A stretch of 64,000 bases of DNA from Minisyncoccia bacterium (lineage in GTDB: Bacteria; Patescibacteriota; Minisyncoccia; Phycocordibacterales; Phycocordibacteraceae), in contig JBCLFD010000001.1 of the NCBI GenBank assembly GCA_038912545.1, positions 18,956 through 82,955 of the forward strand, given 5' to 3'. Position 1 is the stretch's first letter. Each line of letters opens with the position of its first letter. A model generated the notes under the pieces. It did no database searches. It was not told the DNA's origin and saw only the letters and a program-made list of their open reading frames with translations. A program made the position numbers and the translations under genes. This document shows, piece by piece, positions 2,807 through 36,076 of this stretch.

Positions 2807-4531
2807 ATGTTTCCGTTACACGACTCACTTGATGAAAAGATACGAAAAGAACTGGGCGCATATGACGATCTGACTGCCGCATTACTGTCGCGGCGCGGAG
2901 TGGTGACGAAAGCAGATGCGCAAATGTATTTACAACCGTCATACGATTTGCATCTGCACGATCCACTTATGATGACGGACATGCCGAAAGCCGCCGAGCG
3001 GCTTTCCCGTGCAATTCTTTCAGGAGAAAAAATTGCGGTGTGGAGCGACTACGACTGCGACGGCATTCCGGGCGCGGTCCTGCTCCACGATTTTTTGAAA
3101 AAAGTCGGTGCACAATTTGAAAATTATATTCCGCATCGACACTTAGAAGGGTACGGAATGAATGTGGCCGGCGTGGAGAAGCTGGCAAAAAATGGCGTCA
3201 CATTAATTGTGACGGTTGACTCGGGCATTACCGATGTCGCGCCAGTGACTCGTGCGAATGAGCTTGGTATAGAAGTCATCGTCACTGACCATCACTTGCC
3301 AGGTGAAACATTGCCACCCGCATACGCCGTGGTGAATCCAAATGCTCGCCCCGATGAAAAATATTTGTACAAAAGTTTGTGCGGTTCGGGCGTCGCATGG
3401 AAGCTCGTCTGCGCCGTGCTCGCTACCAATCCGATAGTGCGTGAACGGGTTCCTGTCGGCTGGGAGAAATGGTTGCTGGACATGGTCGGGCTCGCGACTA
3501 TTGCGGACATGGTGCCTCTCACTGGCGAAAACCGTTTACTTGCTACGTATGGACTGCTCGTTATGCGAAAGTCACCGCGGCTCGGTCTACAGAAACTCTG
3601 TCGCGGAGCGCGCGTTGAACAACGAAACATATCAGAAGACGACGTTGGCTTTATGATTGCACCTCGGGTGAATGCTGCGAGCCGTATGGGGGATGCGCGC
3701 GACGTCTTCACGCTCTTCACGACTACCAATGAATCAGAGGCCGACGAGCTTGTTAAAAAATTAGAGAAAGCGAACAGAGAGAGAAAAGCATCTGCTGGTG
3801 CTATCACGCGCGCCGTGCATACGCGAATCAGGGAGAATGGCGCCGTTGCCGATATCATCGTACTCGGCGACCCCGAGTGGCGACCTGGACTGCTCGGCCT
3901 CGTCGCGAACACGATTGCCGAGGAATATGAGCGTCCTGTTTTTCTCTGGGGACGTGAAGGGAATATGAGCATAAAGGGGTCGGTGCGGAGCGGAGAAGTG
4001 CATGCGCTCCACCTTATGCGTTCGGCCGGTGATGTGTTTGTTGAATTCGGCGGACATGCCGCGGCGGGCGGTTTCACTGTGCGTGATGGCGCAGTTTTCT
4101 CTCTAGAAGAGCGCCTGATGAAAGCGCACGCAGAACTTCGCGCGAGGGTGGCAGACGAGGACCCGCTCGTCGCGCGTGCGGATGCGGAACTCAATCTTGA
4201 AGAAATTTCTCCATCGTTCTTTGAGAAGGTCTCTCTGCTCGCCCCCTTCGGCATGGAGAACCCAAAACCTTTGTTTCTGCTCCGCAACGTTGTTGTGAAC
4301 AATATTTCCACATTCGGAAAAGCGAATGAACATCTTAAATTGAATATTGGAACCGAAACGGGCAATCGGTCATTTGACGCCGTGACTTTTTTTGCAAAAG
4401 GAAACATTGCGCGTGTAGCAAAAATGCTGACCCGTGGAGGTCACGCGCATCTGCTCGCACACATAGAACGCGATTCTTTTTCCCGCGCACATCCGATTCG
4501 CCTGCGACTGATTGATATCCGCGCGGTATAA
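2807..4531 (+). CDS. recJ: single-stranded-DNA-specific exonuclease RecJ
   Basis: DHH/DHHA1 motifs (DYDCDG, VTVDSGITD, VTDHH). Start trimmed to MFPLHDSLDEK. Confidence 0.85.
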   Translation: MFPLHDSLDEKIRKELGAYDDLTAALLSRRGVVTKADAQMYLQPSYDLHLHDPLMMTDMPKAAERLSRAILSGEKIAVWSDYDCDGIPGAVLLHDFLKKVGAQFENYIPHRHLEGYGMNVAGVEKLAKNGVTLIVTVDSGITDVAPVTRANELGIEVIVTDHHLPGETLPPAYAVVNPNARPDEKYLYKSLCGSGVAWKLVCAVLATNPIVRERVPVGWEKWLLDMVGLATIADMVPLTGENRLLATYGLLVMRKSPRLGLQKLCRGARVEQRNISEDDVGFMIAPRVNAASRMGDARDVFTLFTTTNESEADELVKKLEKANRERKASAGAITRAVHTRIRENGAVADIIVLGDPEWRPGLLGLVANTIAEEYERPVFLWGREGNMSIKGSVRSGEVHALHLMRSAGDVFVEFGGHAAAGGFTVRDGAVFSLEERLMKAHAELRARVADEDPLVARADAELNLEEISPSFFEKVSLLAPFGMENPKPLFLLRNVVVNNISTFGKANEHLKLNIGTETGNRSFDAVTFFAKGNIARVAKMLTRGGHAHLLAHIERDSFSRAHPIRLRLIDIRAV

Positions 4532-4539
4532 TTCACCCG

Positions 4540-4959
4540 ATGAAATTCACCATCCATGCCGACGGGGGAGCGAGGGGGAATCCGGGGCCCTCCGGAGCGG
4601 GTGCGATGATACGCGATGAGCTCGGCAATTCGGTCAGAGCGGTCTCTGCCTACCTCGGACATCGCACTAATAACTATGCTGAATATGAAGCGGTCATTCG
4701 CGCATTTGATGAATTGCTTAAACTGGTGCCGGCAGGCAAACGTAACAAAACAGAAGTCGCAGTAAAAATGGACAGTGAATTGGTCGTGAAGCAAATGCGT
4801 GGAGAATATAAAGTGAAGCATCCGGTCTTGAAAGAACAGTACGCGCGACTCGTACACAACATCGGTGCATTCGGCAAAGTCACGTTTATGCACGTCTTCC
4901 GCGAAGAAAACTCTGACGCCGACGCCCTCGCGAACGCCGCGATGGATAGGGGAGCATGA
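4540..4959 (+). CDS. rnhA: ribonuclease HI
   Basis: ADGGARGNPGPSG...NNYAEYEA...SDADALAN is the RNase H fold signature. Confidence 0.8.
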   Translation: MKFTIHADGGARGNPGPSGAGAMIRDELGNSVRAVSAYLGHRTNNYAEYEAVIRAFDELLKLVPAGKRNKTEVAVKMDSELVVKQMRGEYKVKHPVLKEQYARLVHNIGAFGKVTFMHVFREENSDADALANAAMDRGA

Positions 4960-6509
4960 TCGGACTTGTTGCTATCGTTACGGGTTTTGCGAGCGGGATA
5001 TTTTCCCGCTCGTTGCTTTTTGAGAGTTGGTGGCCGATATTTTTTGCGCTCTTGCTCGCGCTTATATTTTTTGTCGCAAGTTTTCTAACGACGCGCCGAG
5101 CGTACACGCTCGGCGCGTTGTTTTGTATGTGCCTCGTGCTCGGCGGATTGCGTGCTGGGCTCGCCGAGTCGCCGTTACCGAGCACCTTTCTCGCCGACCT
5201 GAAGCATCGCGTCACGTATGAGGCGCTCGTCGTGGGCGATCCTGACCTGCGCGATACGAATCAGCGTGTCGCACTCTTGGTTACGAAAGGAGATGCAAAA
5301 GTAAAAATGCTCGCGGTCGCGTCGCGCACGTCGGAAGTGAAGGTGGGAGACACGGTCAACGTCTCCGGCACGCTCTCGGTCCCCGAATCGTTTGCTGACG
5401 ACAATGGTCGTATTTTTCGTTACGACAAATATCTGGAGCGCGACGGCATTCGCTTTATGCTGAATTTCGCCTATCTGCGTGTCGTGCAGACGGCTCCACG
5501 ATATTCCATACCTGCTGTGCTTGCGCGAATAAAACATTCATTCCTTGACGGACTCCAAGCATCCTTGCCGGAGCCATACGCATCGCTTGCAGGAGGAGTC
5601 GTGATAGGAGGAAAGTCCGGTCTTGGAAATGAACTGAAAGATGCGTTCACGCGCTCGGGGCTCGTGCATATCGTCGTGCTCTCGGGCCACAACGTAATGA
5701 TTGTTGCGAGTTGGGCGATTGCATTCTTTATTTTCTTCTTCGCCCGAGCCGAAACTATCTTTAGAGTTCGCATCCCGCGCGGTGCAAGCATCGTAGCCGG
5801 AGCACTTGCGCTCATTCTCTTCGTCGGCATCGCGGGATTCTCGGCGACGGCAATCCGCGCGGCGCTCATGGCTCTCATCGCGCTCTATGCTCGGGCGACC
5901 GGCCGGACCTATGCGGCCGGTCGCGCGCTCCTTGTTGTTATTTTTCTTATGCTCCTTTGGAATCCCCTCTATCTCGTTTTTGACCCAGGATTCGGTCTCT
6001 CAGTTGTCGCCACTGCAGGGCTCATCTGGCTTGCGCCTATCATTGATACGTTTTTGCCGATGAGAAATGCTTTCTTGAAAAATATATTGGCAACAGCGCT
6101 CGCGGCGCAAGTCGCCGTTCTCCCTCTTCTTTTGTACTTCACTGGCAATCTCTCACTCGTCGCCATTCCCGCAAATATTGTTGCCGCGCTCGTGGTTCCG
6201 TTTGCCATGGCGTTTTCTTATCTCGCCGGCTTCGGCGGAATACTCTTCGGTTCGACTGCGCTCACCGCAGGCGGCTCCTCTACAGCGTTTCTCGCCATCA
6301 TTCTTGGCATGCCCGCGTATGGTGCGGCGACGGCCCTCATTGAGCTCGCACGAGCGAGCGCAGCGCTTCCATTCGCCGCTGTTATGCTCCCGCCCTTCCC
6401 ATTTTGGCTCGTACTTCTCGCGTATACGGCGCTTATTTATTTCGTTGCGTCGTCGTATCGTTTCTCAACGACTGACCAATTAAGGTTCGCGAAAAATGCA
6501 TCCACGTAA
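4956..6509 (+). CDS. comEC: competence protein ComEC/Rec2 (DUF4131 + Competence domain, no MBL domain)
   Basis: Polytopic membrane protein. LAGGVVIGGKSGLGNELKDAFTRSGLVHIVVLSGHNVMIV matches the ComEC core. Confidence 0.75.
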   Translation: MIGLVAIVTGFASGIFSRSLLFESWWPIFFALLLALIFFVASFLTTRRAYTLGALFCMCLVLGGLRAGLAESPLPSTFLADLKHRVTYEALVVGDPDLRDTNQRVALLVTKGDAKVKMLAVASRTSEVKVGDTVNVSGTLSVPESFADDNGRIFRYDKYLERDGIRFMLNFAYLRVVQTAPRYSIPAVLARIKHSFLDGLQASLPEPYASLAGGVVIGGKSGLGNELKDAFTRSGLVHIVVLSGHNVMIVASWAIAFFIFFFARAETIFRVRIPRGASIVAGALALILFVGIAGFSATAIRAALMALIALYARATGRTYAAGRALLVVIFLMLLWNPLYLVFDPGFGLSVVATAGLIWLAPIIDTFLPMRNAFLKNILATALAAQVAVLPLLLYFTGNLSLVAIPANIVAALVVPFAMAFSYLAGFGGILFGSTALTAGGSSTAFLAIILGMPAYGAATALIELARASAALPFAAVMLPPFPFWLVLLAYTALIYFVASSYRFSTTDQLRFAKNAST

Positions 6510-7039
6510 TTCTTTTTATCTGCCGGCACATAATCAACCATAAAGGCGTGCTCCCACATATCCAGTGCGAGAAGTATCGGGAGCCCGGCAAGCTGGCCGA
6601 TCTCATGATCACCCACGAACACAGTATGTAATGTCTTGCCCACGGCATCGTAGTACACGATGACCCAACCGATACCGCGCGTCCCCGCAACTTCTTTCAC
6701 ATGTCCTTCTAACCCCGCGTCGCCATATTTTTCTTTCGCCATTTTTGCCAGACCGCCTTCTGCTTTCTGCATACTGCCTACTGTTTCTAGCTGTTCAAAA
6801 TAATATTCATGCATGCGCATACCGTCAAACTCAAAAGCGAAACGCCGGCGCAATTCGGCGACGGGGTATGGGTCAAGTTCAAGCGTCCCTGCTCGCACGG
6901 CTCCGAGTTTTTCTGCAATTAGATTCGCATGCTTCACATAGCCCTCATAGAGACCGAGATGCACTTTGATTTGTTTTTCTGAAAGTCCCGTCAGTACGGG
7001 GAGGTTAAATGCTTTTGGTTGGTAGGTCATGGGACGCAT
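6437..7039 (-). CDS. Fe/Mn superoxide dismutase
   Basis: LALDMWEHAFMVDY (DxWEHAYY motif) plus N-terminal PYxLP...HLxxH-like region. Confidence 0.9.
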   Translation of the reverse strand: MRPMTYQPKAFNLPVLTGLSEKQIKVHLGLYEGYVKHANLIAEKLGAVRAGTLELDPYPVAELRRRFAFEFDGMRMHEYYFEQLETVGSMQKAEGGLAKMAKEKYGDAGLEGHVKEVAGTRGIGWVIVYYDAVGKTLHTVFVGDHEIGQLAGLPILLALDMWEHAFMVDYVPADKKNYVDAFFANLNWSVVEKRYDDATK

Positions 7040-7751: not shown

Positions 7752-8426
7752 ATGGGAATGGAAGGCGAAAAGATAAATTTGAATCGTAGGGAATTTCTTA
7801 AAGTTCTTGGTGCCACGGCCGTTACTGGGATGTTGCCTATAGAAGATGCTGGAGCCGTTGAAAAAAAGAAACCGATATCACCGAGCTTGAGAGGTTCACC
7901 TGAATCACAGAGGAGACAGAACGAGAAAGCCGACAAAGTGAACCTCTCTCGTATCAAGGATGATGCTCAACTGGAAAAGTTTAAGGAATTGAAATTGCTT
8001 GTTCCAATTCCGCAGAACGAGACAGTTCAGATTGATCCTCGACTAGCAGAAAAGTGGCGCTGGGTTCGTCCGTGGACAACAAAATTTCTCAAAGATATCG
8101 GGCGAGAATACTATAGCCAATTCAAAAAACCGATACAGGTAAATTCTGCGGTGCGAACAGTGGAGCGCCAGAACGAACTGCGGGGTACAAACAGAAATGC
8201 GGCGTCAACTGAAGGAGATAAAAAATCATCCCATCTGACTGGTGCGGCTATTGATATTGCGAAGATAGGAATGTCACCCACAGAGCTTGTGTGGATGCGT
8301 AATCGATTGCTCGCTCTTGAGAAACGCGCATTAATTGAAGCAACCGAGGAGAGAAGGCAGCTTGTTTTTCATATCATGGTGTTCAAAAACTACTCCCGTG
8401 TGGGGAGTGTTTCGAAAACTAAATAA
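7752..8426 (+). CDS. Tat-signal secreted peptidase M15-like / DUF5715-like protein
   Basis: RREFLK twin-arginine motif. SSHLTGAAIDIA fits the SxHxxGxAxD zinc D,D-peptidase motif. Confidence 0.5.
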   Translation: MGMEGEKINLNRREFLKVLGATAVTGMLPIEDAGAVEKKKPISPSLRGSPESQRRQNEKADKVNLSRIKDDAQLEKFKELKLLVPIPQNETVQIDPRLAEKWRWVRPWTTKFLKDIGREYYSQFKKPIQVNSAVRTVERQNELRGTNRNAASTEGDKKSSHLTGAAIDIAKIGMSPTELVWMRNRLLALEKRALIEATEERRQLVFHIMVFKNYSRVGSVSKTK

Positions 8427-9264: not shown

Positions 9265-9302
9265 AGTCGCAACATGGTAGCATGGGATTCAAAACGAGCA
9301 AA

Positions 9303-9935
9303 ATGACTTTACTTCTCGCCCTCATCGTTCTCATTCTCTCCATTATCCTCCACGAGGTGGCGCACGGCTACGCTGCCGACTCGCTCGGCGACCCGACCGC
9401 GCGTCTCGCCGGTCGCCTGACTCTTAATCCGGTCCCACATATTGATCTTATGGGTTCCATCGTACTTCCGGCATTACTGGTATTCACTCAATCGCCGATT
9501 CTCTTCGGTTGGGCGAAGCCGGTTCCCTATAATCCCTATAATCTGCGCAATAAGCGCTGGGGGGAGGCGCTCGTCGCTGTTGCGGGCTCGGCAACGAACA
9601 TTCTGCTCGCCATTATCTTTGGTCTCATTGTGCGCTATGGGGCGGGGCTTGGCTTTGATGCCACCGCACTTTCTCTGGCTTCCACGATTGCATTCGTCAA
9701 TCTCTTTTTAGGACTCTTTAATCTCATCCCGATACCCCCTTTAGACGGCTTCACGACTCTGCGCGCGCTCCTGCCATGGAATCTCGCCCAGAGTCTTATT
9801 CGTTTTGAAAATCAAATCCGCGCTGGAGGTGCTCTCTCACTCATCCTCTTCCTCCTCATTTTCTACTACGTTCTTGCTGTCCCTTTCTTCAAGCTTGTTA
9901 TGTATCTCTTCGGTCTCCTTATTGGTGGCGTGTAG
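9303..9935 (+). CDS. site-2 protease family (M50) zinc metalloprotease
   Basis: HEVAHG HExxH motif in TM1, LNPxxHxD, multiple TM segments. Start trimmed to MTLLLAL. Confidence 0.7.
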   Translation: MTLLLALIVLILSIILHEVAHGYAADSLGDPTARLAGRLTLNPVPHIDLMGSIVLPALLVFTQSPILFGWAKPVPYNPYNLRNKRWGEALVAVAGSATNILLAIIFGLIVRYGAGLGFDATALSLASTIAFVNLFLGLFNLIPIPPLDGFTTLRALLPWNLAQSLIRFENQIRAGGALSLILFLLIFYYVLAVPFFKLVMYLFGLLIGGV

Positions 9936-9974: not shown

Positions 9975-10418
9975 ATGGAGTACCAAGTTCCGCAGTTTAT
10001 TGAAGTGGAGGATAAGGTCGTTGGACCACTGACGCTCCGACAATTTATCTATCTCGCCGGCTCTGGCGGTATCTGTGTCATCCTCATCGCCTACCTGCCA
10101 CTCGTTTTCGCGATTCTGCTCTGCATCCCCGTTGTTGCGCTCGGTGCCGCGCTTTCTTTTTATAAAGTAAACGGTAAATCGTTTATAGAAATTCTTGAAG
10201 CGGGCTTCAATTATTACACTGGAGCAAAGATGTTTCTCTGGAAGCGGGAAGCGCCGAAAGCAGAGAAGCCCGGCGCTGCAGCGGCTGCTGCCGCAGCCGC
10301 TGAGGCCGCGCTTCATCCAAAACACGCTCCGCGTCTCACAAGCGGAAAGCTCACCGAGCTCGCGTGGTCGTTAGATATTCAGAAACCAGACACTAACATC
10401 CTAGAGCCAAAATCCTAA
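9975..10418 (+). CDS. PrgI/VirB3-like small membrane protein (T4SS-associated)
   Basis: Two adjacent TM helices after a short N-terminus, poly-Ala/Lys tail, position directly 5' of the VirB4 ATPase. Confidence 0.55.
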   Translation: MEYQVPQFIEVEDKVVGPLTLRQFIYLAGSGGICVILIAYLPLVFAILLCIPVVALGAALSFYKVNGKSFIEILEAGFNYYTGAKMFLWKREAPKAEKPGAAAAAAAAAEAALHPKHAPRLTSGKLTELAWSLDIQKPDTNILEPKS

Positions 10419-10423
10419 TTTGT

Positions 10424-11062
10424 ATGTCTACTCCAACCATCGGCGCCACACAGCATTTCGTTCCCGTTAAAGAGATCCGGAACGGTACCATTATCCTGAA
10501 TGATGGCGGGTATCGCGGTATCCTTATGTGCTCCTCTATCAACTTCGGTCTCAAGTCGGCCGACGAACAGCACGCCATCACGCTTGGATTCCAAAACTTC
10601 TTGAATATGCTTGATTTCTCTATTCAAATCGTTATCAACTCGCGCAAAATGGACCTGCGTCCCTATCTCGCACTCTTAGAGGGGAAATCCGCCGACCAAA
10701 AGACCGAACTAATGCGCATTCAACTGCGTGAATATGTGGAATTCGTCCGTTCGTTCGCCGATCAGGCGAATATTATGACGAAAATGTTTTATATCGTTGT
10801 GCCGTACGCGCCGAGAGCGAGCGTGGCAAATGTTCTGCATACAATCAGCTTTCTCGGCGGGAAGAAAGAAACTCAAGCGGTTCGTGACAGCTCTTTTGAA
10901 GAAGACCGTATCCAGCTTGAACAGCGCCTCTCGCTCGTTGCAGGAGGACTTGAAGGCACCGGCGTGCGCGCGGTCCCTCTCGGCACCGAAGAAGTGATTG
11001 AGCTCCTCTATCGGGCGTTCAATCCGGGCGAGCTGGAGAATCCGATTCGTCTTGATGCATGA
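10424..11062 (+). CDS. VirB4/TraC-type ATPase, N-terminal domain fragment (separate ORF)
   Basis: VPVKEIRNGTIILNDGGYRGILMCSSINFGLKSADEQ matches the start of the CagE_TrbE_VirB N-domain. Ends 36 nt before the ATPase ORF. Confidence 0.6.
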   Translation: MSTPTIGATQHFVPVKEIRNGTIILNDGGYRGILMCSSINFGLKSADEQHAITLGFQNFLNMLDFSIQIVINSRKMDLRPYLALLEGKSADQKTELMRIQLREYVEFVRSFADQANIMTKMFYIVVPYAPRASVANVLHTISFLGGKKETQAVRDSSFEEDRIQLEQRLSLVAGGLEGTGVRAVPLGTEEVIELLYRAFNPGELENPIRLDA

Positions 11063-11098
11063 TTATGATGTGTAAACTTTTAAATATTTAAATATTTT

Positions 11099-12913
11099 AT
11101 GTCCTTACTCGACTTTCTCAACAAAAAGAATCAAGAAACGCCGGAGATTGTGCCGGTCCTGCCGAAAGACATCTACCGACAGGGGACACTGAATCTCGTT
11201 GATACGATAGCGCCAACCGCGCTGAAGATCGGCTCGCGCGAGCTGGAGCTCGGAGAGAAGTTCGTCCGTGCATTTTATACAATCTCCTATCCGCGTTTTC
11301 TAGCGGACAGCTGGTTCTCGCCAGTGGTGAATCTGGATAAAGTGCTGGATGTCTCAATCTTCATCCACCCGATAGACACCGAGCAGGCGCTCCGCAATTT
11401 CCAGAAAAAGGTCGCCGAGGTGGAGAGCCAGATTAATGAACGCGAGACGAAGGGCCTTGTGCGCGATCCGATGCTTGATACCTCCCACCAGGACCTTGAG
11501 TCGCTCCGCAACAATCTCCAACAGGCGCAGGAAAAACTTTTTGATGTCGGTCTTTACCTTGCGCTTTACGGCGACTCCCGAGAAGAAATTGACAAAACCG
11601 AGGGCGATATCCGCGGGATTCTTGATGCGAAGCTCGTTTACACCAAGCCCGCGCTCTTCCAACAGGAACAAGGATTCCGCTCCTGCCTCCCACTCGGCAC
11701 CGATGAACTCTTGGTTAATTCTAAACTGAATTCGTCGCCCCTCTCGTCGTTCTTCCCCTTCGTTTCGTTTGACCTCACGAGCGATCGCGGGATTCTCTAC
11801 GGGATAAATAGGCATAATTCATCCCTCATCCTCTTTGACCGCTTCTCGCTGGAGAATTACAACTCGGTCGTCTTCGCAAAGTCTGGCTCGGGCAAGAGTT
11901 ATGCGACGAAGCTGGAGGTACTTCGTTCGCTTATGTTCGGCACCGACGTCATCGTCATTGACCCAGAGCGCGAATATGAACAGCTCGCCGAGGCCACCGG
12001 CGGTCGTTCCTTCAATATCTCGCTCTCATCCGAACATCACATCAACCCTTTTGACCTCCCTCCGGTAAAGGAGGATGAGGACCCTCGCGATATCCTGCGC
12101 TCTAACATTATCAATCTCGTCGGGCTTTTCCGCCTTATGCTCGGCGGGCTCTCGCCAACCGAGGACGCGATTATTGACCGTGCCATCAGCGAGACGTATG
12201 CACTTAAAGACATCACCGGCGACGCAGACTTCACCGGTGCGGAACCGCCCTTGCTCTCCGACTTTGAACAAGTGCTCTCTGGCATGGAGGGAAGCGAATC
12301 CCTCGTGGAGCGACTCTCCAAATATACACGCGGGACGTGGTCGGGGTTCCTCAACCAGCCGACGAATATCAATATCAATCAGCAGTTCGTCGTCTTCTCG
12401 GTACGTGATATGGAGGATGAGTTGAAACCGATTGCGATGTATATCACGACGCACTACATCTGGAACGCGATACGTCACGAACTGAAGAAACGCCTGCTCA
12501 TTATTGACGAGGCATGGTGGATGATGAAGAGCGAAGACACAGCGAGCTTCCTCTACAGTATGGCAAAGCGCGGACGCAAATATTATCTCGGCGTCTGCAC
12601 CATCACGCAGGACGTGGAGGACTTCTTAAAGAGCCCGTACGGGAGGCCGATTCTCACAAACTCTTCACTTCAGCTCCTCTTGAAACAATCACCGACGACA
12701 ATTGATGTGCTCCAGCAGACATTTAATCTCACCGACGAAGAAAAATATCTCCTGCTGGAAGCGGGTGTGGGGGAGGGGCTCTTCTTCGCAGGGCTGAAGC
12801 ACGTCGCGATAAAGGTCGTCGCGAGCTATACCGAGGATCAAATCATCACCTCCGATCCTTCCCAGCTCATTGCGATTAAACAAGAGAAGGATCGCCATGC
12901 CGCGCAACAATAG
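11099..12913 (+). CDS. VirB4/TraC-type conjugal-transfer ATPase (core)
   Basis: FVRAFYTISYPRF N-domain continuation. Walker A AKSGSGKSY, Walker B LLIIDEAWWMM. Confidence 0.8.
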   Translation: MSLLDFLNKKNQETPEIVPVLPKDIYRQGTLNLVDTIAPTALKIGSRELELGEKFVRAFYTISYPRFLADSWFSPVVNLDKVLDVSIFIHPIDTEQALRNFQKKVAEVESQINERETKGLVRDPMLDTSHQDLESLRNNLQQAQEKLFDVGLYLALYGDSREEIDKTEGDIRGILDAKLVYTKPALFQQEQGFRSCLPLGTDELLVNSKLNSSPLSSFFPFVSFDLTSDRGILYGINRHNSSLILFDRFSLENYNSVVFAKSGSGKSYATKLEVLRSLMFGTDVIVIDPEREYEQLAEATGGRSFNISLSSEHHINPFDLPPVKEDEDPRDILRSNIINLVGLFRLMLGGLSPTEDAIIDRAISETYALKDITGDADFTGAEPPLLSDFEQVLSGMEGSESLVERLSKYTRGTWSGFLNQPTNININQQFVVFSVRDMEDELKPIAMYITTHYIWNAIRHELKKRLLIIDEAWWMMKSEDTASFLYSMAKRGRKYYLGVCTITQDVEDFLKSPYGRPILTNSSLQLLLKQSPTTIDVLQQTFNLTDEEKYLLLEAGVGEGLFFAGLKHVAIKVVASYTEDQIITSDPSQLIAIKQEKDRHAAQQ

Positions 12914-13527: not shown

Positions 13528-14505
13528 ATGCGATATGCGCTTCTGATAGGACTTATGCTCGTGGCGCCGATGATGGTGTCGGCGCAGTATATGACGAGTA
13601 CGGATCCATTCAACCTCACGGTCACGCCTCAGTATCCCGTACCGAATAGTTCTGTCACTCTCACCGCACTCTCTGCGGGCATTGATCTCGCGAACGCGAC
13701 AATGGATGTTTCTGCGAACGGTACGTCGGTCTACAAGGGCTCGGTACGCGCGGTTGATGTCCCAGTCCTAGGCGCCGGCGTGCTCATTAATATACGAGTA
13801 GTGATAACGAGCAATGGCGCGAGCGCGAGCCAGACGGTTTCTGTCCGCCCGCAGGACCTCGTGCTTATAACTGAACCGCTCGCGACCGCACCACCGCTCT
13901 ATCTCGGCAAAGCACTTCCGCCTCTCGGCGGGAGTGTGCGCATTGTCGCCGTAGCAGGATTTAAAAATGGAAGCGGTACCGCGCTTGACCCCGCGAAACT
14001 CTCGTATGCGTGGAAGGTGGACGACGCTCTCCAGGCGAATATGTCGGGTATCGGTAAGAGCGCGATTATCGTCGCGACACCGCTTCAATATCGCAATCGC
14101 AGTGTGTCGGTGGTCGTCCAGAGCCAAGACGGCTCTCTCGTGACCGGCGCATCGCTCTCGCTCGCCCCTCACGAACCGACCGTTCGTATTTATGAAAATG
14201 ACCCCCTGCTCGGCATCCGCTTTGACCGCGCACTATCGTCTTCATACTCCATCACTGATGCAGAATCCTCGCTCTATGCTGGCCTCTATTCATTCCCGAC
14301 TGGAGCGGGCACATCCGCGATTAATTGGTATCTAAATGGTGCACTCGCACAGAGCGGTACAACGATAACACTCCGTCCCACGGGGCTAGGGAAGGGGAAT
14401 GCCTCTCTTTCGCTCGTCGCGGCAATAGGCGACCTTGTGAGCGCAACACAATCGCTTCAAATATTATTCGGGGCGAAGCCCACATCTAATTTCTTCGGCT
14501 TATGA
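13528..14505 (+). CDS. secreted protein (signal peptide, Ala/Ser/Val-rich, beta-rich)
   Basis: MRYALLIGLMLVAPMMVSAQ signal peptide. The listed N-terminal extension is basic read-through, so the start is trimmed. Confidence 0.5.
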   Translation: MRYALLIGLMLVAPMMVSAQYMTSTDPFNLTVTPQYPVPNSSVTLTALSAGIDLANATMDVSANGTSVYKGSVRAVDVPVLGAGVLINIRVVITSNGASASQTVSVRPQDLVLITEPLATAPPLYLGKALPPLGGSVRIVAVAGFKNGSGTALDPAKLSYAWKVDDALQANMSGIGKSAIIVATPLQYRNRSVSVVVQSQDGSLVTGASLSLAPHEPTVRIYENDPLLGIRFDRALSSSYSITDAESSLYAGLYSFPTGAGTSAINWYLNGALAQSGTTITLRPTGLGKGNASLSLVAAIGDLVSATQSLQILFGAKPTSNFFGL

Positions 14506-15458
14506 TGAGAAAAACTTTTATAACTTTGTCGCTCTTCGCCATCGCATTTGTGGCAACGTCCGCGCACGCTCAAGAATTCATCCCGCTCGCGCCCATTCCG
14601 GGCCTCACCACAGGAATAACAGCAGATCAGGCGGGTCTCGCGAACTTTTTAAATAATCTTTACAAATATCTCATTGGTCTTGCTGCTGTTATCGCGGTGG
14701 TAGAGATTATCTGGGGCGGTCTCCTCTATTCCACACAGGATGTGCCGGGATCGAAAACGAATGGAAAAGAAAAAATCCAGAATGCACTCCTCGGCCTCGT
14801 CCTCGTCCTCTCCCCCGTCCTTGTCTTCTCCATCATCAATCCAAGCATCCTGAATCTCTCCATCAATCTCCCGGAGCTCGACACAAAATCCGGCGCTCCG
14901 AATCAAACAGGGGGTACGGGAGGAACTGGGACTCAAACTGTTGATGCTACAACTAACTGTACTGTGACGGGCACGATTGGCATCCTCCAGATTGCGACTT
15001 GTCCAACAGAGTCTGCATCAAAAACATGGGGGGCGACGTGTACGTGGGGTAATTTGTCGTCAATTGAACCCCTCACGATTAGTGCTGGTGGTGCCGTTGC
15101 ACAAAATACAATTTCCTGCTCTAACAAAAACAGTTATGTATTCATAGAGACGATAGGTGTAGTAAGCTTTTCGAAAGCAATAAATACTCTTCGTCCATTA
15201 GCCCAGACTGTCGACAATTCCGAGAATGCATCATCTGCAATTTCGTTTGCGAATATTTGTAATGCAGCAGGACGAAAAACATGCATAAGTGACATCCCTA
15301 AGGTTACTTTTTCCGTTGAGTGTTTACCAAAACCAATGACACAAATTCCTGCCTCATCCGGAGGAAGCGGCAAATGCTATAAAGAGACACTTACTTGTGA
15401 AAATGTAAGCGGAAATACAAAGTGTGTTGCAACTCCTGATTGGACACCATTCCAATAA
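14502..15458 (+). CDS. TrbC/VirB2-like pilin-fold protein with Cys-rich C-terminal extracellular domain
   Basis: Signal peptide, two hydrophobic helices (YLIGLAAVIAVVEIIWGGLLY; ALLGLVLVLSPVLVF), then a ~190-aa domain with 12 Cys. Confidence 0.5.
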   Translation: MMRKTFITLSLFAIAFVATSAHAQEFIPLAPIPGLTTGITADQAGLANFLNNLYKYLIGLAAVIAVVEIIWGGLLYSTQDVPGSKTNGKEKIQNALLGLVLVLSPVLVFSIINPSILNLSINLPELDTKSGAPNQTGGTGGTGTQTVDATTNCTVTGTIGILQIATCPTESASKTWGATCTWGNLSSIEPLTISAGGAVAQNTISCSNKNSYVFIETIGVVSFSKAINTLRPLAQTVDNSENASSAISFANICNAAGRKTCISDIPKVTFSVECLPKPMTQIPASSGGSGKCYKETLTCENVSGNTKCVATPDWTPFQ

Positions 15459-15460
15459 AT

Positions 15461-17095
15461 ATGCGACGGACACTTACCATCATCGCAGTTGTGATAGTCC
15501 TCGGAGGACTTGTGGTGTGGGCGTATTTCTCATTCTTCGCAAATCAGGCGGGCATTACGGTCGCGCCAACGGGTACGACGAGCTTGCCGGGAGCAGGGCA
15601 GGCGACTACCCCCACTCAGGGCGAGACGGCGTCTCCGGCGACGACTGCGGTCACTACAGCGGCTGGTGCACGGTTGGTGAAGATAAGTGCGGGGCCGGTG
15701 GTGCCGAGCCCTATTGTTTACAGAAGCACGTCAACAACAACACCAGGATTCTTTGTAAACTACATTGAGCGACAGAGCGGAAACGTTTTCTCCTATTCGT
15801 CTGTCACCCGTTCATCCACGAGAATAAGCAACAAAACCGTTCCGGGAATCCAGTTGGCAGTGTGGCTTCCGAGTGCCCAGACGGCGTTTGTGCGCTATCT
15901 ATCGGGCACTGATTCTACAACTATCAATACGTACGCTCTGAACGCGGACGGTTCCGACGGTTTCTTTTTGGAACAAAATCTCGCTGATATCGCCGTTTCT
16001 TCAACCAGTATTTTGACTCTCGCGTCTGGCGTAACCGGCTCGGTCGCGTCCACCCGCCGCACCGATGGGACGCGCTCGGTTGAAGTGTTTTCTTCGCCAC
16101 TCTCCTCTCTCCGAGTCGCCCTCGCCGGTAAGAATCGTTATTTCGCCTTTACCAATCCTTCGTCATCTCTCGGTGGAGCGGTATTTCTTGTTGATGGTGC
16201 TGGTCGGCTCTCTCGCATCGCCGGTCCTCTAAACGGACTCGTCGCTCTCCCGAGCCCTTCGGGCGCGACCGTGCTCGTGAGCTATGTGGTCGGCGGCGCG
16301 ATGCAGATGGAGCTTGTGAACACCGCGACCGGCGCCGTGACTCAACTCCCGGTCGCTACTATCGCCGACAAATGTGTCTGGGCTGCTGACAACTTGGCGG
16401 TCTATTGTGGTATCCCAATGAACCCTCCGGCGAACTACACCTACCCAGACGACTGGTACCAGAGCGCAATTTCATTCTCTGATCGTATCTGGAAGATTAA
16501 TGTCGCCGGACGCTATGCTGAATTGGTCCTTGATTTCTCAAAAGAAAATGATATCGCTCTTGATGCTGTGGCTCTTTCTATTGATTCTGCCGGAACGGCA
16601 CTCTCCTTCATCAATAAAATAGACGGCTCTCTCTGGGTATATTCACCACAAATATCGTATCAAGAAGCATCGCAAACATCGCCAGCCCCAACCATTCAAG
16701 TGCCAGTTTCACAAAAAACACCATCAATCAATCAAAATACACCCTCCTCAACAAACAATTCAGAAGTAAATACCCCTCCCGTTTCAACAGGAGCACAAAC
16801 TAACAATCAACTAACGCCAAATCCAACAACATCCGTACCGTCAAGCGTTTCTGTAAACATACAAGGTTTTGCGTTTAATCCCTCAACACTGACAATTAAA
16901 AAAGACACAAAGGTTACGTGGACTAATAATGACAGTGTAATTCATACTGTAACTTCTGATTCCGGTAATCTTCTAAATTCGCCAACACTTTCTCCTGGAA
17001 CATCTTTCAGTTTTACTTTCGCCAACACTGGTTCACTAACCTATCATTGTGCTGTTCACCCGACTATGAAAAGCACAATTATTGTTGAAAACTAA
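15461..17095 (+). CDS. membrane-anchored protein with C-terminal amicyanin/plastocyanin-like cupredoxin domain
   Basis: N-terminal TM, Thr/Ser-rich linker. C-terminus KVTWTNNDSVIHTV...YHCAVHPTM carries type-1 Cu ligands His, Cys-x2-His-x2-Met. Confidence 0.65.
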   Translation: MRRTLTIIAVVIVLGGLVVWAYFSFFANQAGITVAPTGTTSLPGAGQATTPTQGETASPATTAVTTAAGARLVKISAGPVVPSPIVYRSTSTTTPGFFVNYIERQSGNVFSYSSVTRSSTRISNKTVPGIQLAVWLPSAQTAFVRYLSGTDSTTINTYALNADGSDGFFLEQNLADIAVSSTSILTLASGVTGSVASTRRTDGTRSVEVFSSPLSSLRVALAGKNRYFAFTNPSSSLGGAVFLVDGAGRLSRIAGPLNGLVALPSPSGATVLVSYVVGGAMQMELVNTATGAVTQLPVATIADKCVWAADNLAVYCGIPMNPPANYTYPDDWYQSAISFSDRIWKINVAGRYAELVLDFSKENDIALDAVALSIDSAGTALSFINKIDGSLWVYSPQISYQEASQTSPAPTIQVPVSQKTPSINQNTPSSTNNSEVNTPPVSTGAQTNNQLTPNPTTSVPSSVSVNIQGFAFNPSTLTIKKDTKVTWTNNDSVIHTVTSDSGNLLNSPTLSPGTSFSFTFANTGSLTYHCAVHPTMKSTIIVEN

Positions 17096-17187: not shown

Positions 17188-17940
17188 TTACTCGGGAATG
17201 GTAAGAGATTTTGAGGCAGAACCCTTGGCGAGAGAGCGGCGCATATGCAATTCTTGGAGAGATCCGACGAGGTTTGTGGTGATGAAGTACAAAGCGAGGG
17301 CACTTGAAGTTGTATAGGAAATAATGCCAATAAGGAAGGGAAATACATATTTGAGCTGGAGGCCCATAATCTTTTGAAAGTCACCCTGCATACCGCCCGT
17401 GCTGGAGGGTTTCATCGTTCCTGCGAGAGAGAGATGTGCTTGAAGATATTGTGTGAGCCCTGCAAGTACTGCGAGCACAATACTCTTGCCCGTTACCGCA
17501 ATAATACCAAGTAGATTGAGCGATACCTCATCAGGAACTGGAGTAAATGAATATAAAAGTGCCGTATTTGCTCCCGAAAACGGTTCATAAAAGAATACCC
17601 AATAGAGAGCGAGAAGAACAGGGATTTGAATAAACACCATTAAGATACTGGCAAAAGGATTCACTTTTGCCTCTTTATAAAGAGAGAGTGTCGCTAGTGC
17701 TTCTTTTTCTTTATTCCCTTTGTGGATTTCCTTGAGCTCTTTTAGTTTCGGTTCCAAGTCTCTCATAGCGTGCTGTGTGCGCGCTGCAGCGAGAGAGAAT
17801 GGAAGAAGAATAAGCCGAATGACTATCGTGAGGAGGATAACGGCGATGCCGATGTCCGAACCTGGTACAAGCGCCACAAGCGCCACAAGCGCATTGTAGA
17901 TTGGATCATAAAAAACGGCGTGGAAAAATGCAGATATCAT
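17188..17940 (-). CDS. yidC: membrane protein insertase YidC (short form)
   Basis: YidC/Oxa1 core TM pattern, plus synteny with rnpA-rpmH-dnaA. Confidence 0.85.
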   Translation of the reverse strand: MISAFFHAVFYDPIYNALVALVALVPGSDIGIAVILLTIVIRLILLPFSLAAARTQHAMRDLEPKLKELKEIHKGNKEKEALATLSLYKEAKVNPFASILMVFIQIPVLLALYWVFFYEPFSGANTALLYSFTPVPDEVSLNLLGIIAVTGKSIVLAVLAGLTQYLQAHLSLAGTMKPSSTGGMQGDFQKIMGLQLKYVFPFLIGIISYTTSSALALYFITTNLVGSLQELHMRRSLAKGSASKSLTIPE

Positions 17941-18486: not shown

Positions 18487-19839
18487 ATGGATAAAAGAAA
18501 TACGAAGGAGCTCTGGGAATATATCCTCGCCCAGGTTGAGCTCTCTGTTTCTCCTGCCAACTTCAATACCTGGTTCCACAACAGTTTTATCGTTAAAATC
18601 GGCGATGATGGAGTCGTCCATCTTGGGGTGCCAAGTCAGTTCTTCAAAGATTGGTACACAAAAAAATTTCATTCGCTCTTGCTCAAAATCCTGCGCGACA
18701 TTTCTTATGAATTCCGAAACATAGAGTATGTAATCATTAAGGATGAGCGCCGAAAGGCGTCCAGGGAGGTTAAGAATACGTGGGGGGCGCTTGAGCTTCC
18801 GCTAGATGAGTTCTATATCAACCGAGCAGATAATTTAAATCCGCGATACACCTTTGACACGTTCGTCGTGGGCGACTTTAACAGTCTCGCGCACGCGGCG
18901 TCTCAGGCGGTGATTAATCGTCCGGGTATTACCTACAATCCTCTTTTTGTGTACGGCGACACCGGCAGAGGGAAGACCCATCTCATACAGGCGATCGGGA
19001 ATCAATTTAAAAAACAGTATCCGGGCCGAAAAGTATTTTATCTCACTTCGGAAAAATTTACCGTTGATTACACCGACTCGGTGCAGGCGGGGACCGCTAA
19101 CCGTTTTAAAGATAAGTATCGACAGTACGATCTTCTTATTATGGACGATGTTCAGTTCTTATCAAAAAAAGAAAAAACTGAGGAGGAACTATTTCATCTC
19201 TTCAATGCGCTTCATGATGCAAATAAACAGATAATTTTCTCTTCGGATCGCCCCCCAATCGCAATCCCCGATATCGCCGAACGGCTGAAGGGGCGCTTGG
19301 CGAGCGGAATGTCAGTAGATATTGGCGAACCGGATTCTGAAAGCCGTATGGCGATCGCACGGAAGAAGGCCGCCTCGCATGGAGTTATGCTTTCCGACGA
19401 AGTAATAGAGTACGTCGCGGTCTCTCTTTCGGGCTCAATACGTGAATTGGAGGGTTTGGTGAATAATCTTATTTGTAGTGCTCAAGTCAAGGGTGTTGCT
19501 CCGGATATTGCGGAGGTGCGTAAATCACTCCGTTCGTTCACTCGTCCGCAGAAAAACATCTCTGTAAAAAATATTGTGGATAAGGTTGCGGAGTTCTATG
19601 GTATTAATGAAGAGAGTATTTATGAAAAAACCCGTAGAAGGGAGGTGGTGCGCCCTCGCCAAGTTATTATGTATCTTCTAAGGGAAGATTTTAATATTTC
19701 ATATCCAACTATTGGTTCAAAAATCGGCGGTCGCGACCACACAACAGTTATCCACTCATGTGAGAAGATAAAGCGTGAGGTGCTTGTGGATAACGTCTTA
19801 GCAAAAGAGATTCAGAATATACGAAGTCTTCTTGTATGA
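18487..19839 (+). CDS. dnaA: chromosomal replication initiator DnaA
   Basis: AAA+ GDTGRGKTHL, and C-terminal DNA-binding domain (RDHTTVIHSCEKI). Confidence 0.95.
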   Translation: MDKRNTKELWEYILAQVELSVSPANFNTWFHNSFIVKIGDDGVVHLGVPSQFFKDWYTKKFHSLLLKILRDISYEFRNIEYVIIKDERRKASREVKNTWGALELPLDEFYINRADNLNPRYTFDTFVVGDFNSLAHAASQAVINRPGITYNPLFVYGDTGRGKTHLIQAIGNQFKKQYPGRKVFYLTSEKFTVDYTDSVQAGTANRFKDKYRQYDLLIMDDVQFLSKKEKTEEELFHLFNALHDANKQIIFSSDRPPIAIPDIAERLKGRLASGMSVDIGEPDSESRMAIARKKAASHGVMLSDEVIEYVAVSLSGSIRELEGLVNNLICSAQVKGVAPDIAEVRKSLRSFTRPQKNISVKNIVDKVAEFYGINEESIYEKTRRREVVRPRQVIMYLLREDFNISYPTIGSKIGGRDHTTVIHSCEKIKREVLVDNVLAKEIQNIRSLLV

Positions 19840-19951: not shown

Positions 19952-21052
19952 ATGAATATTTCAATAGAAAAAAAGAAATTTATAGAGTCTGTGCATATCG
20001 TCGCGCGATTTGCACAACGCAAGGAGGGGACGCTCGCTGCACTTTCGTCCATTCTCATTATCGCCAGTGATGATGGAATTAAAATGCGCGCCACTAATCT
20101 TGAGACCGGTATTGATCTCACTTTAGAAGGGAAACATACAACAAATGGCGCAGTAGCGATCCCCGCAACCATTCTCGGACAAATTGCACACTCTATTTCT
20201 GGAGAAGGATTCATTACACTTGAACACATTGGCGACGTCGCCACTCTTAAAAGCGGAACTGGAAAAAGCTCTATTAAAACAGTCCCGTACGAGGATTTTC
20301 CATCTATTCCTTTCCCCGAGAATCCAAAAAACAGGATTGTTATTTCAGGAACTCTCCTTAAAAATCTTTTTAGTTCCATAGCACCTTGTGCATCCACATC
20401 AACCATTCGTCCAGAATTGGCGAGTGTGTATCTCTCTATTGAGGGCGGAATACTCACTATCGCCGCAACTGACTCTTTTCGTCTTGCTGAGAAAAGGGTC
20501 CCATTAAGCAACAATGGAATACAAGGAAAATTTCTCATCCCAGCAAAAAACGCACTTGATATATCACAGGCGCTCCCAGATGAAGATATTATTATGTCGT
20601 TTGACGAGCATCAATGCGCTTTTATTTCGCCAAGCAGTATGATCGTCTCTCGTCTTACAAGCTCTGTATATCCAGACTATCACCAAATTATTCCAAAAGA
20701 ATCAATCGTTGATGCTGTCATTCTACGCAAAGATTTTGAATCGGCATTGAAGTGCACATCCATCTTCTCCGATACGTATCAGAAGGTGCGCATAAATTTT
20801 GATCCAAAAAAGAATCAATTCAGTATTTATGCACACAATACCAATATTGGAGAATCACTAGAAACACTCTCAGCACAAACACACGGCAGTCCTCTAGACC
20901 TTTCGTTTAATCACCGCTACCTATCAACAATACTCTCACTCACTTCTGCAGAGAGTATTTCGTTCACCGCTGCTGGTATAGGCCGACCACTTATAATTAA
21001 AGGTGTCGGCGACGCCTCACTCCTCTATCTCGTCTCACCAATGAATCAGTAA
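19952..21052 (+). CDS. dnaN: DNA polymerase III beta sliding clamp
   Basis: Three-domain beta-clamp pattern, position after dnaA. Confidence 0.9.
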   Translation: MNISIEKKKFIESVHIVARFAQRKEGTLAALSSILIIASDDGIKMRATNLETGIDLTLEGKHTTNGAVAIPATILGQIAHSISGEGFITLEHIGDVATLKSGTGKSSIKTVPYEDFPSIPFPENPKNRIVISGTLLKNLFSSIAPCASTSTIRPELASVYLSIEGGILTIAATDSFRLAEKRVPLSNNGIQGKFLIPAKNALDISQALPDEDIIMSFDEHQCAFISPSSMIVSRLTSSVYPDYHQIIPKESIVDAVILRKDFESALKCTSIFSDTYQKVRINFDPKKNQFSIYAHNTNIGESLETLSAQTHGSPLDLSFNHRYLSTILSLTSAESISFTAAGIGRPLIIKGVGDASLLYLVSPMNQ

Positions 21053-32270: not shown

Positions 32271-34094
32271 ATGTGTGGAATCGTCGGCTACATCGGTAAA
32301 AAAGATGCAACTCCATTTCTTATTGAAGGATTACGAGCGCTTGAGTACCGCGGGTATGATTCGGCAGGACTCTATGTTGTCGGTTCCGGTGTCATAAAAC
32401 GCGCTGGAAAAGTTGAAGTGCTTGCGTCAGTTATTCCGAAAGATTTTATTGGGCACGTCGGGATCGCACATACCCGATGGGCAACACACGGACCTCCCAC
32501 AGAAGCGAATGCTCATCCGCACAGCGACAGCACCGAAACTATTTGGTTGGTGCACAACGGCATTATAGAAAACTATGCCGAGATACGAGAGGCACTCATT
32601 CAAAAAGACATCACCTTTTCGTCGGACACAGATACTGAAGTTCTCGCAAAATTAATTGGAGAAAAATATAAAACTAATGTTCTTCTCGAACACGCCGTTG
32701 AAAAAGCGCTTGAAGAAGTGCGCGGTACCTATGGCATCGCGGTCGTCTCGACACGAGAACCCGAGAAAATAGTCGCGACCCGTATGGGGAGCCCACTGCT
32801 TATAGGAGTGGGCCCCGATGGTTATTATCTCGCCTCGGACGCGACTCCTATTCTCCCGCATACGCGTGACGTTATCTATTTAGATGATGGCGAAATAGCG
32901 ATCCTCACACCGACCACGTATAGCATTCGCATACGAGCTGGAGATCAGGTGCAGAAAACCATAGAGACCCTCGAGTGGGATTCTGAAGCGACCAAGAAAC
33001 AAGGATACGAGCATTTCATGCTGAAAGAAATCATGGAGGTGCCCGAGGTTATCCGAAACACGCTTCGCGGACGTCTGGACTCAAAAGAGGGAACCGCCGT
33101 ACTCGGTGGCCTTCGTGATGTAGCAAACCGCCTTGTTGATGTACGACGCATCATCATTACCGGATGCGGAAGTGCGTATTATGCCGGACTTGTGGGGCAG
33201 GAGCTTATTGAAGAATTCTCTAGTATCCCGGTTGAAGTAGAGGTGGCGTCAGAATTACGGTATCGGCGTTTTACCGCGGATCAGGAGCACACGATTCTTA
33301 TCGCGGTCTCACAGTCGGGTGAGACCGCAGACACGCTTGAAGCCATTCGTATCGCAAAAAAACACGGAATGCTCACTCTCGGAATCGTAAATGTCGTTGG
33401 ATCTTCGATCGCACGCGAGACCGACGCCGGAGTGTATAACCACGCTGGTCCAGAAATAGGCGTCGCCTCAACCAAAGCGTTTGTCTCGCAAGTTGTCGTC
33501 CTCTCCTTAATTGCACTTATTCTCGGCCGTACTCATGGAATGAAAAAAGAAGAAAGACTAAAAATAATACAGGCGCTCTCTAAACTTCCGGAGAAAGCAG
33601 AGTTGGTCCTCGGCTCGAGAGATTCCATCGCGGCTCTCGCAAAAAAATATTCGCATGTGCAGAACGCATTGTATATCGGACGGAAATATCAGTGCCCGGT
33701 TGCCTATGAAGGAGCTCTGAAGCTTAAAGAGATTTCCTATATCCACGCGGAGGGCTACGGAGCGGGCGAAATGAAGCACGGCCCCATTGCGCTTATTGAT
33801 CCATCGTTCCCCACCATCGCTCTGGCTCCCAGAGATTCGCTTTACGAAAAAATGTGCTCCAACATAGAAGAAATCAGAGCGCGTGGCGGGGAGGTGCTCG
33901 CGGTGACCACCGAAGGTAATGAAGACATCAAACGGCTTACCCAGGATGTTATGTATATACCCGAGACGCACGAAGCCCTCTTACCGGTACTCACCACGAT
34001 ACCGCTCCAGCTTTTTGCTTACTATGTGGCGAAAGAACGCGGGCTTCCTATCGACAAGCCACGCAATCTCGCAAAATCTGTCACAGTGGAATAA
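32271..34094 (+). CDS. glmS: glutamine--fructose-6-phosphate aminotransferase
   Basis: N-terminal MCGIVGYIG Ntn Cys, two SIS domains, C-terminal SVTVE. Confidence 0.95.
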   Translation: MCGIVGYIGKKDATPFLIEGLRALEYRGYDSAGLYVVGSGVIKRAGKVEVLASVIPKDFIGHVGIAHTRWATHGPPTEANAHPHSDSTETIWLVHNGIIENYAEIREALIQKDITFSSDTDTEVLAKLIGEKYKTNVLLEHAVEKALEEVRGTYGIAVVSTREPEKIVATRMGSPLLIGVGPDGYYLASDATPILPHTRDVIYLDDGEIAILTPTTYSIRIRAGDQVQKTIETLEWDSEATKKQGYEHFMLKEIMEVPEVIRNTLRGRLDSKEGTAVLGGLRDVANRLVDVRRIIITGCGSAYYAGLVGQELIEEFSSIPVEVEVASELRYRRFTADQEHTILIAVSQSGETADTLEAIRIAKKHGMLTLGIVNVVGSSIARETDAGVYNHAGPEIGVASTKAFVSQVVVLSLIALILGRTHGMKKEERLKIIQALSKLPEKAELVLGSRDSIAALAKKYSHVQNALYIGRKYQCPVAYEGALKLKEISYIHAEGYGAGEMKHGPIALIDPSFPTIALAPRDSLYEKMCSNIEEIRARGGEVLAVTTEGNEDIKRLTQDVMYIPETHEALLPVLTTIPLQLFAYYVAKERGLPIDKPRNLAKSVTVE

Positions 34095-34106
34095 TCTCTC
34101 CTTGAT

Positions 34107-35954: not shown

Positions 35955-36076
35955 ATATTAATTATATCATACATTACTCCACTCCACGCGTCAGACCCGA
36001 ATGTCTTGCCTTGCCTCGAAAAAACGAATGAAGACATTCATTTGTTACTCGGCTCGTTAGGTAGTAGGGTGGCGGG

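Follow-up and report, generated by a model that had tools for sequence, protein, structure and literature searches.

The window analysed here, a stretch of 64,000 nucleotides (nt) from a Minisyncoccia bacterium (contig JBCLFD010000001.1 of assembly GCA_038912545.1), encodes the VirB4 ATPase of a type IV secretion system (T4SS) in two consecutive open reading frames (ORFs). We consider it highly probable that these, hereafter ORF1 and ORF2, are each a functional gene in its own right and that the pair encodes one VirB4-type T4SS ATPase. This split is standard for the T4SS that Patescibacteria encode on the chromosome near dnaA, and its breakpoint is that of the TrsD/TrsE pair of pSK41/pGO1-type systems; the two-gene arrangement has already been published and is ordinary for the phylum. 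ORF1 (10424..11062, plus strand) runs from an ATG to a TGA, encodes 212 amino acids (aa) and corresponds to a TrsD-like or 'TraC-like' (PF26593) protein, the first half of the VirB4 N-terminal domain. ORF2 (11099..12913, plus strand) starts with an ATG and encodes, in 604 aa, the remainder of VirB4, so that both sum to 816 aa. Between them lies an AT-rich intergenic spacer of 36 nt, TTATGATGTGTAAACTTTTAAATATTTAAATATTTT (11063..11098, no strand assigned), read directly from the sequence. The two ORFs share one reading frame, in which three stops stand between them (TGA at 11060, TGA at 11066 and TAA at 11081). An earlier note on this DNA, made from its letters alone, had given the two ORFs, their 816-aa total, the TGA that ends ORF1, a 36-nt spacer with a direct repeat present twice and intact downstream module genes. 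All of these are in the sequence: the repeat TTAAATATT stands at 11080-11088 and, with a period of 8, again at 11088-11096, a degenerate third unit precedes them directly, and the neighbouring module ORFs are open.

The distribution of VirB4 over both ORFs, also proposed in that note, is correct, as they match consecutive parts of one profile. On the NCBIfam CD1110 VirB4 model (NF045971, 752 positions) ORF1 covers positions 2-162 and ORF2 positions 183-733, and the two matches are complementary and do not overlap. ORF2 scores 382 bits against this model (E value 5.6e-114), above the curated cut-off of 325 bits. Taken alone ORF2 is devoid of a complete N-terminal domain, its profile match beginning at 183; positions 2-162 are found on ORF1, and the pair is complete. 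ORF2 opens with a conserved leader, M-S/A-L-L-D-F-L, followed by the second half of the N-terminal domain (approximately residues 29-230) and then by the C-terminal P-loop ATPase domain (approximately 230-585). Indeed, Pfam reports P-loop_TraG (2.3e-25) and AAA_10 in ORF2, residues 230-585 match the crystallised VirB4 C-terminal domain (PDB 4ag5, E 6e-45), and residues 255-559 correspond to residues 446-741 of TrwK. The Walker A motif AKSGSGKS (residues 260-267; 11876..11899, plus strand) and the Walker B motif LLIIDE (residues 466-471; 12494..12511, plus strand) are both intact, as read from the translation and aligned to a fused relative. For ORF1, precomputed annotation lists PF26593 'TraC-like', as it does for all its close homologues.

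Structural comparison places ORF1 within the same protein. An AlphaFold2 model of ORF1, built with 50 family members, reached a mean predicted local confidence (pLDDT) of 88 and a predicted template-modelling score (pTM) of 0.78. Its sole significant fold matches in the PDB were 14 TrwK/VirB4 chains of the R388 T4SS, with probabilities of 0.99-1.00, a query-normalised TM score of up to 0.59 and about 215 aligned columns. We then compared both ORFs with P0237 (locus L090), a relative of 797 aa in which the two parts are fused. ORF1 residues 9-205 correspond to its residues 8-213, and ORF2 residues 29-598 to its residues 226-796. The earlier note had recommended an alignment to full-length VirB4 as a check for residues missing at the junction, and against P0237 none are missing. 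The junction is a 12-residue variable linker in P0237; in the split forms it is replaced by the ORF1 tail and an ORF2 leader of about 28 residues. The P0237 model aligns end to end with TrwK (E 8e-26, TM score 0.61), and its confidence drops to a pLDDT of 64-68 at residues 211-230, which is the split position, between confidently folded blocks. This dip at the linker, together with the TrwK fold matches, places the break in the middle of the VirB4 N-terminal domain, where the models predict a flexible linker between two folded sub-domains.

The strongest rival explanation is that ORF1 is an independent accessory paralogue, that is, a duplicated VirB4 N-domain with a role of its own, and not the piece that ORF2 misses. 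It would agree with the available text of PMC12102498, where TrsD is given no function, with the long disordered C-terminal tails of some ORF1 homologues (P0161, P0198 and P0199) and with the extra N-terminal transmembrane helix of the Firmicute counterparts. However, ORF2 is without the region that ORF1 supplies, with a profile match that starts at 183. Furthermore, each part is present once in the fused relatives and their order is unchanged, and the fused model superimposes on full-length TrwK. We therefore regard an accessory paralogue as improbable and retain the reading of ORF1 and ORF2 as the two parts of a single ATPase.

The separate ORF1 is widespread and uniform. We found 6660 homologues in a collection of 5.8 billion proteins, the best 120 of which (75-100% identity) all measure 209-225 aa. 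Among cluster representatives at 50% identity there were 2287 ORF1 matches, and 149 of the best 150 are standalone proteins, mostly of 200-250 aa, with some reaching 440 aa through low-complexity C-terminal tails. Contigs from NCBI, ENA and Logan invariably show PrgI, then the ORF1 homologue, then a VirB4 of about 605 aa. To describe the junction itself we used 83 loci: 80 species-representative loci (71-82% ORF1 identity), retrieved with a single ORF1 protein as query and limited to relatives of at least 71% identity, plus L002, L004 and L006. A separate ORF2 is present in every one of these loci (71-100% identity) that has downstream sequence; in L041 there is no ORF2 match, and an inserted cassette extends to the contig end. 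ORF1 spans 208-224 aa (83 copies, the window's own counted) and ORF2 604-638 aa (72 complete copies). Mean pairwise nucleotide identities at codon positions 1, 2 and 3 are 0.83, 0.90 and 0.45 for ORF1 and 0.89, 0.95 and 0.49 for ORF2. Judged from these substitution patterns, both ORFs are under strong purifying selection, with silent sites near saturation. The earlier note had named uniformly split orthologues as the sign of a conserved two-gene architecture; they are uniformly split in the window's lineage (the 83 species-level loci) and not in a sister clade of the Colwellbacteria type, where the gene is fused.

Three members of the ORF1 family, P0161, P0198 and P0199 (406-443 aa), end in C-terminal tails of low complexity, roughly 200 residues long and rich in proline, alanine and glutamine. 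A C-terminal appendage on an ORF1-type protein is possible only since the gene is split.

The earlier note had left three options for the split, a genuine two-subunit arrangement, a programmed recoding site and a recent lesion or assembly artefact, and only the first of them stands. A recent nonsense or frameshift lesion of a single virB4, or an error of assembly or sequencing, would be in line with two ORFs in the same frame just 36 nt apart and with the presence of a fused form of about 790 aa in related Parcubacteria. It is nevertheless very unlikely: the split lies at the identical place in 83 relatives (71-100% identity) that were assembled independently, and in all, thousands of independent assemblies agree. 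Purifying selection acts on both halves, neither of which is truncated; ORF2 starts at an ATG of its own, with its conserved leader, and no residues have been lost with respect to the fused form. Genuine lesions, moreover, look different. They are found in two members of the fused clade, L091 and L092 (600 aa): L091 has lost N-domain residues 90-192 and L092 has a frame change inside the N-domain.

The junction varies widely among relatives. Across the 83 loci the ORFs overlap by 14 nt once, and are separated by 1-6 nt in 61 loci, 8-14 nt in 3, 24-33 nt in 12 and 113-885 nt in 6. The spacers of 24-33 nt are AT-rich, as is the 36-nt spacer of the window. Frame offsets of 0, 1 and 2 are all found. 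Since the spacers range from -14 to 885 nt, with all frame offsets and with cassettes inserted into some of them, ORF1 and ORF2 must be independent cistrons. Programmed recoding, that is, a read-through or frameshift at the junction yielding a single VirB4 of 816-plus aa, draws on the shared frame in the window, the TGA stop of ORF1 and the conservation of the spacer in a subset of relatives, but is scarcely credible given that three stops (TGA, TGA and TAA) would have to be bypassed, that relatives show every frame offset, mostly spacers of 1-6 nt and insertions of up to 885 nt that bring in genes, that the junction RNA has no predicted structure and is less structured than its shuffled counterparts (z = +0.92), and that in this Paceibacteria/Kaiserbacteria-like lineage a reassignment of TGA would still leave the TAA stop.

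Six relatives, and not the window, carry a cassette between the ORF1 and ORF2 homologues (L034:4131-4935, L037:4128-5006, L040, L041, L052 and L080); five of these junctions are complete, the sixth being that of L041. The cassette contains a 23S_rRNA_IVP four-helix-bundle gene (PF05635, E 4e-36) with either a DUF5680 gene or an unknown ORF of 130 aa. It is flanked by inverted repeats of 16-21 nt made of tandem TAGGCNC units, the arms of L037 being perfect over 16-17 nt, and the first TAGGCNC unit provides the TAG stop of ORF1. From its gene content and repeats it looks like a mobile insert of the rRNA-intervening-sequence type placed in an mRNA spacer. No 23S_rRNA_IVP-type gene is found inside the 113-nt spacer of L085.

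The fused form deserves separate consideration. When P0237 was used as query, 118 of the 120 best matches (59-100% identity) were proteins of 775-807 aa with both PF26593 and P-loop domains. The fused proteins (the set P0271-P0389) are named Colwellbacteria or Parcubacteria, with a VirB4 of about 790 aa, and the context of their genes is PrgI ... YidC, RnpA, DnaA, as in the split loci. The N-domain of P0237 is 49% identical to some split representatives, and the median among split representatives is 38%, which places the fused clade inside the diversity of the split forms. A neighbour-joining tree left its placement unresolved, and the fused N-domains were not monophyletic in it. A single in-frame deletion of about 90 nt, reaching from the tail of ORF1 across the spacer and through the ORF2 leader, would yield the fused linker. 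This route, and a breakpoint common to Firmicutes, would make a secondary fusion the simpler reading.

Several observations weigh against the interpretation of ORF1 and ORF2 as a divided VirB4 of the TrsD/TrsE kind. ORF1 matched no Pfam-A family at E <= 1 with hmmscan, in a copy of the database that perhaps lacked PF26593. Neither did it match the NCBIfam TrsD model (NF041427; cut-off 200 bits) at E <= 1. By this model pSK41 TrsD scores 228 bits, and the P0237 N-domain just 32 bits (E 8.5e-8). An hhalign comparison of the ORF1 family with pSK41 TrsD was weak (probability 43%, E 2.5e-4), if collinear over 173 columns, with an alignment identity of 14%. The global confidence of the P0237 model is moderate (pTM 0.61). 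Finally, a sizeable sister clade is fused, so that the split is not obligatory for function.

No GGAGG-like motif was found in the 36-nt spacer, in agreement with the earlier note, which had reported no Shine-Dalgarno sequence there. This is not specific to the junction: a Shine-Dalgarno-like 4-mer lies upstream of only 9 of 58 putative genes of the window, and its absence at the junction is therefore normal for this genome. A -10-like hexamer, on the other hand, stands 4-10 nt before the ATG in 27 of 53 genes, versus 12.5% at random positions, with TATAAT-like boxes 6-8 nt before ATGs, for example at 7752, 18487, 21046 (minus), 34107 (minus), 39067 (minus), 41706 (minus) and 56934. Leaderless mRNAs thus seem to be the rule in this genome, as far as upstream motifs can tell. 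The 1-6 nt spacers of most relatives suggest translational coupling.

The spacer of the window contains three tandem 8-nt units of the TTTAAA type (11072-11096), including the palindrome AATATTTAAATATT at 11083-11096. This core, AATATTTAAATATT, is perfectly palindromic and has a single exact copy in the 64 kb; allowing up to two mismatches there are 4 matches versus 0.26 expected, two of the four inside the spacer. A spacer with TTTAAA repeats is shared by the window and 11 relatives (L002, L012, L033, L035, L045, L046, L053, L062, L075, L078 and L079), always after a TGA stop and always as three tandem 8-nt units, with the consensus TTTAAACTTTTAAATATTTAAATATTTCACC. The motif is unique in the window and is conserved among its carriers far above the level of silent sites. 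The carriers are scattered in the ORF1+ORF2 tree, where none of 100 bootstrap replicates grouped them as a clade, and L006, the closest fetched relative with an intact junction (92% identical), has a 2-nt spacer and no motif. The sequence TTATG stands on both sides of the window spacer and only once in L006; this repeat could be the mark of an insertion or of a microhomology deletion, and it was not seen at the other motif-bearing loci. The TTTAAA-repeat spacer could have been retained from an ancestor and lost several times elsewhere, could be a site of regulation, or could offer an AU-rich region for initiation. A sigma-70 promoter scan of the spacer returned nothing on the plus strand, and a search for -10 boxes yielded a weak AATATT only, so that an internal promoter is unsupported. 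On the minus strand there is a match at 11121-11094 (TTGAGA, 16 nt, TAAAAT; 10/12), a consensus match only, which points from the ORF2 start into ORF1 with its -10 element within the AT-rich spacer.

These data can be assembled into a working scheme. ORF1 would supply the first 200 or so residues of the VirB4 N-terminal domain, and ORF2 its second half plus the P-loop ATPase domain. The two proteins would be translated separately, ORF2 probably by coupling or by re-initiation from an unstructured AU-rich leader, and a putative non-covalent association between them would then rebuild the N-terminal domain. In R388, according to the available text of PMC12857230, which cites Mace et al. 2022, the VirB4 N-terminal domain ensures membrane association and contacts VirB3 and VirB8. 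By analogy with R388, where the N-terminal domain of TrwK docks on TrwM, ORF1 would dock on the adjacent PrgI/VirB3-like protein, and the complex would form an ATPase ring powering pilus and channel assembly. Patescibacteria may need such a T4SS for epibiotic growth. It is conceivable, though rather doubtful, that the separate N-domain half is put to use: the amount or timing of the VirB3-docking piece could be set apart from that of the ATPase, the TTTAAA-repeat spacer could serve as an internal promoter, operator or translation signal in the window's sub-lineage, and lineage-specific C-terminal appendages could be added (disordered tails of up to about 230 residues).

In practice, annotators of Patescibacteria genomes should take this split neither for a pseudogene or recoding site nor for an assembly error, and 'N-terminal VirB4 subunit (TrsD-like)' is the suitable name for the 212-aa 'hypothetical protein'. 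The analysis also ties TrsD of Gram-positive conjugative plasmids, a protein of unknown function, to a structural role as the first half of the VirB4 N-terminal domain. It opens no new biological question.

Both ORFs belong to a chromosomal, co-oriented module that adjoins the replication origin region. A gene for a small membrane protein of the PrgI/TcpE family (VirB3-like; 9975..10418, plus strand; Pfam PrgI 6.3e-11, TcpE 2.2e-5) stops 5 nt before ORF1 and occupies the same position in every relative inspected; its product is presumed to be the membrane anchor of the VirB4 N-terminal domain. Downstream, in the same co-oriented module, lies the gene of a VirB2-like protein with a T4SS pilin domain (14502..15458, plus strand; T4SS_pilin 8.5e-10, TrbC 3.8e-5), and L006 has a pilin gene at the equivalent position. 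Unknown proteins are encoded between ORF2 and this pilin-domain gene. Ahead of the PrgI/VirB3-like gene the module encodes RecJ (2807-4531), ComEC (4956-6509), an Fe/Mn superoxide dismutase (6437-7039, minus strand), an M15-like peptidase (7752-8426) and an M50 peptidase (9282-9935). Beyond the pilin gene come a cupredoxin-domain protein (15440-17095), YidC (17188-17940, minus strand; 60KD_IMP 2.7e-37), DnaA (18487-19839, plus strand; Bac_DnaA 1.3e-62) and, after it, DnaN (19952-21052; DNA_pol3_beta). The nearest database proteins come from metagenome-assembled genomes of Kaiserbacteria, Paceibacterota and Parcubacteria, and an identical ORF1 is already in NCBI. Further away, positions 34001-36000 have a GC content of 0.37 versus about 0.50 elsewhere and cover a 615-aa ORF (34107-35954, minus strand); this stretch may be foreign DNA.

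Comparison with known systems begins with single-chain VirB4 proteins, namely TrwK of R388, the CD1110-family VirB4 of integrative and conjugative elements of Firmicutes and the fused Colwellbacteria-type proteins. Fold, domain order and intact Walker motifs are the same; the window differs in using two polypeptides and in carrying, in place of the 12-residue linker of the fused forms, some 30 extra residues made up of the ORF1 tail and the ORF2 leader. In the SCO6880 family of Actinobacteria (NF042935, 477 positions), too, the protein that matches the N-terminal region of VirB4 stands alone. Positions 217-290 of that model align with residues 128-203 of ORF1 and positions 363-476 with residues 85-200 of ORF2, so that, by the coordinates of the hidden Markov model, the whole N-terminal domain of this family apparently lies in one protein of about 477 aa and its breakpoint would be elsewhere.

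The closest counterpart is the T4SS of the Patescibacteria clade described by Quinonero-Coronel et al. (2025, Microb Genom, PMC12102498). According to its available text, Patescibacteria have 2,272 TrsD homologues, and in 1,664 cases the gene adjoins virB4; those beside virB4 are the commonest T4SS component in Patescibacteria, and one TrsD homologue is essential in Southlakia epibionticum ML1. Detection relied on CONJScan profiles, that of TrsD for these proteins, and dnaA proximity and VirB2-like pilins are also described. TrsD is presented there as a remote homologue of the VirB4 N-terminus; this attribution rests on the citation in PMC12102498, TrsD being absent from the main text of Guglielmini 2014. 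The window shares with the published system the chromosomal, dnaA-proximal genes for PrgI/VirB3-like, TrsD-like, VirB4 and VirB2-like pilin proteins, a TrsD-like gene directly upstream of virB4 and a lineage of the Paceibacteria/Kaiserbacteria type, and shows no substantive difference from what that text describes. Nothing in that text says that it is exactly the TrsD part which the partner VirB4 is missing, or that the breakpoint agrees with that of pSK41. The explicit complementarity of the two ORFs, the identical pSK41 breakpoint and the structural placement of the break are what we add to the publication, and they are a small increment.

The arrangement extends to Gram-positive plasmids, and a tblastn search with ORF1 matched 340 Firmicute plasmid records. 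In pSK41 the gene order is VirB3-like, TrsD (227 aa) and TrsE (672 aa), and the window likewise has VirB3-like, 212 aa and an N-terminally short VirB4; TrsE begins at CD1110 position 183, exactly as ORF2 does. A Pontibacillus megaplasmid encodes a 274-aa protein followed by a 621-aa VirB4, in which the ATPase starts from CD1110 position 172, and the B. thuringiensis Bt407 megaplasmid encodes PrgI, a 328-aa protein and a 661-aa ATPase, the latter from position 176. The upstream proteins of these three systems (227-328 aa) match the VirB4 N-terminus and/or the TrsD model. The leader of ORF2, MSLLDFLNKK, is short, hydrophobic and lysine-rich, a character that it shares with the other split ATPases, such as those of pSK41 (MIMAFLKKKK) and Bt407 (MSFFKKKK). 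Two Firmicute counterparts of ORF1 (L007:5890-6711 and L008:5878-6861) carry an N-terminal hydrophobic, transmembrane-like segment that is missing in ORF1; the Patescibacteria protein may thus be wholly dependent on PrgI for membrane attachment. The staphylococcal pSK41/pGO1 systems (MPF_FATA, pGO1 subclass), whose TrsD/TrsE pair is also called TraD/TraE, are conjugative, reside on plasmids and include both a relaxase and a coupling protein, whereas the system of the window is chromosomal and, in the published view, the chromosomal system of Patescibacteria has been repurposed.

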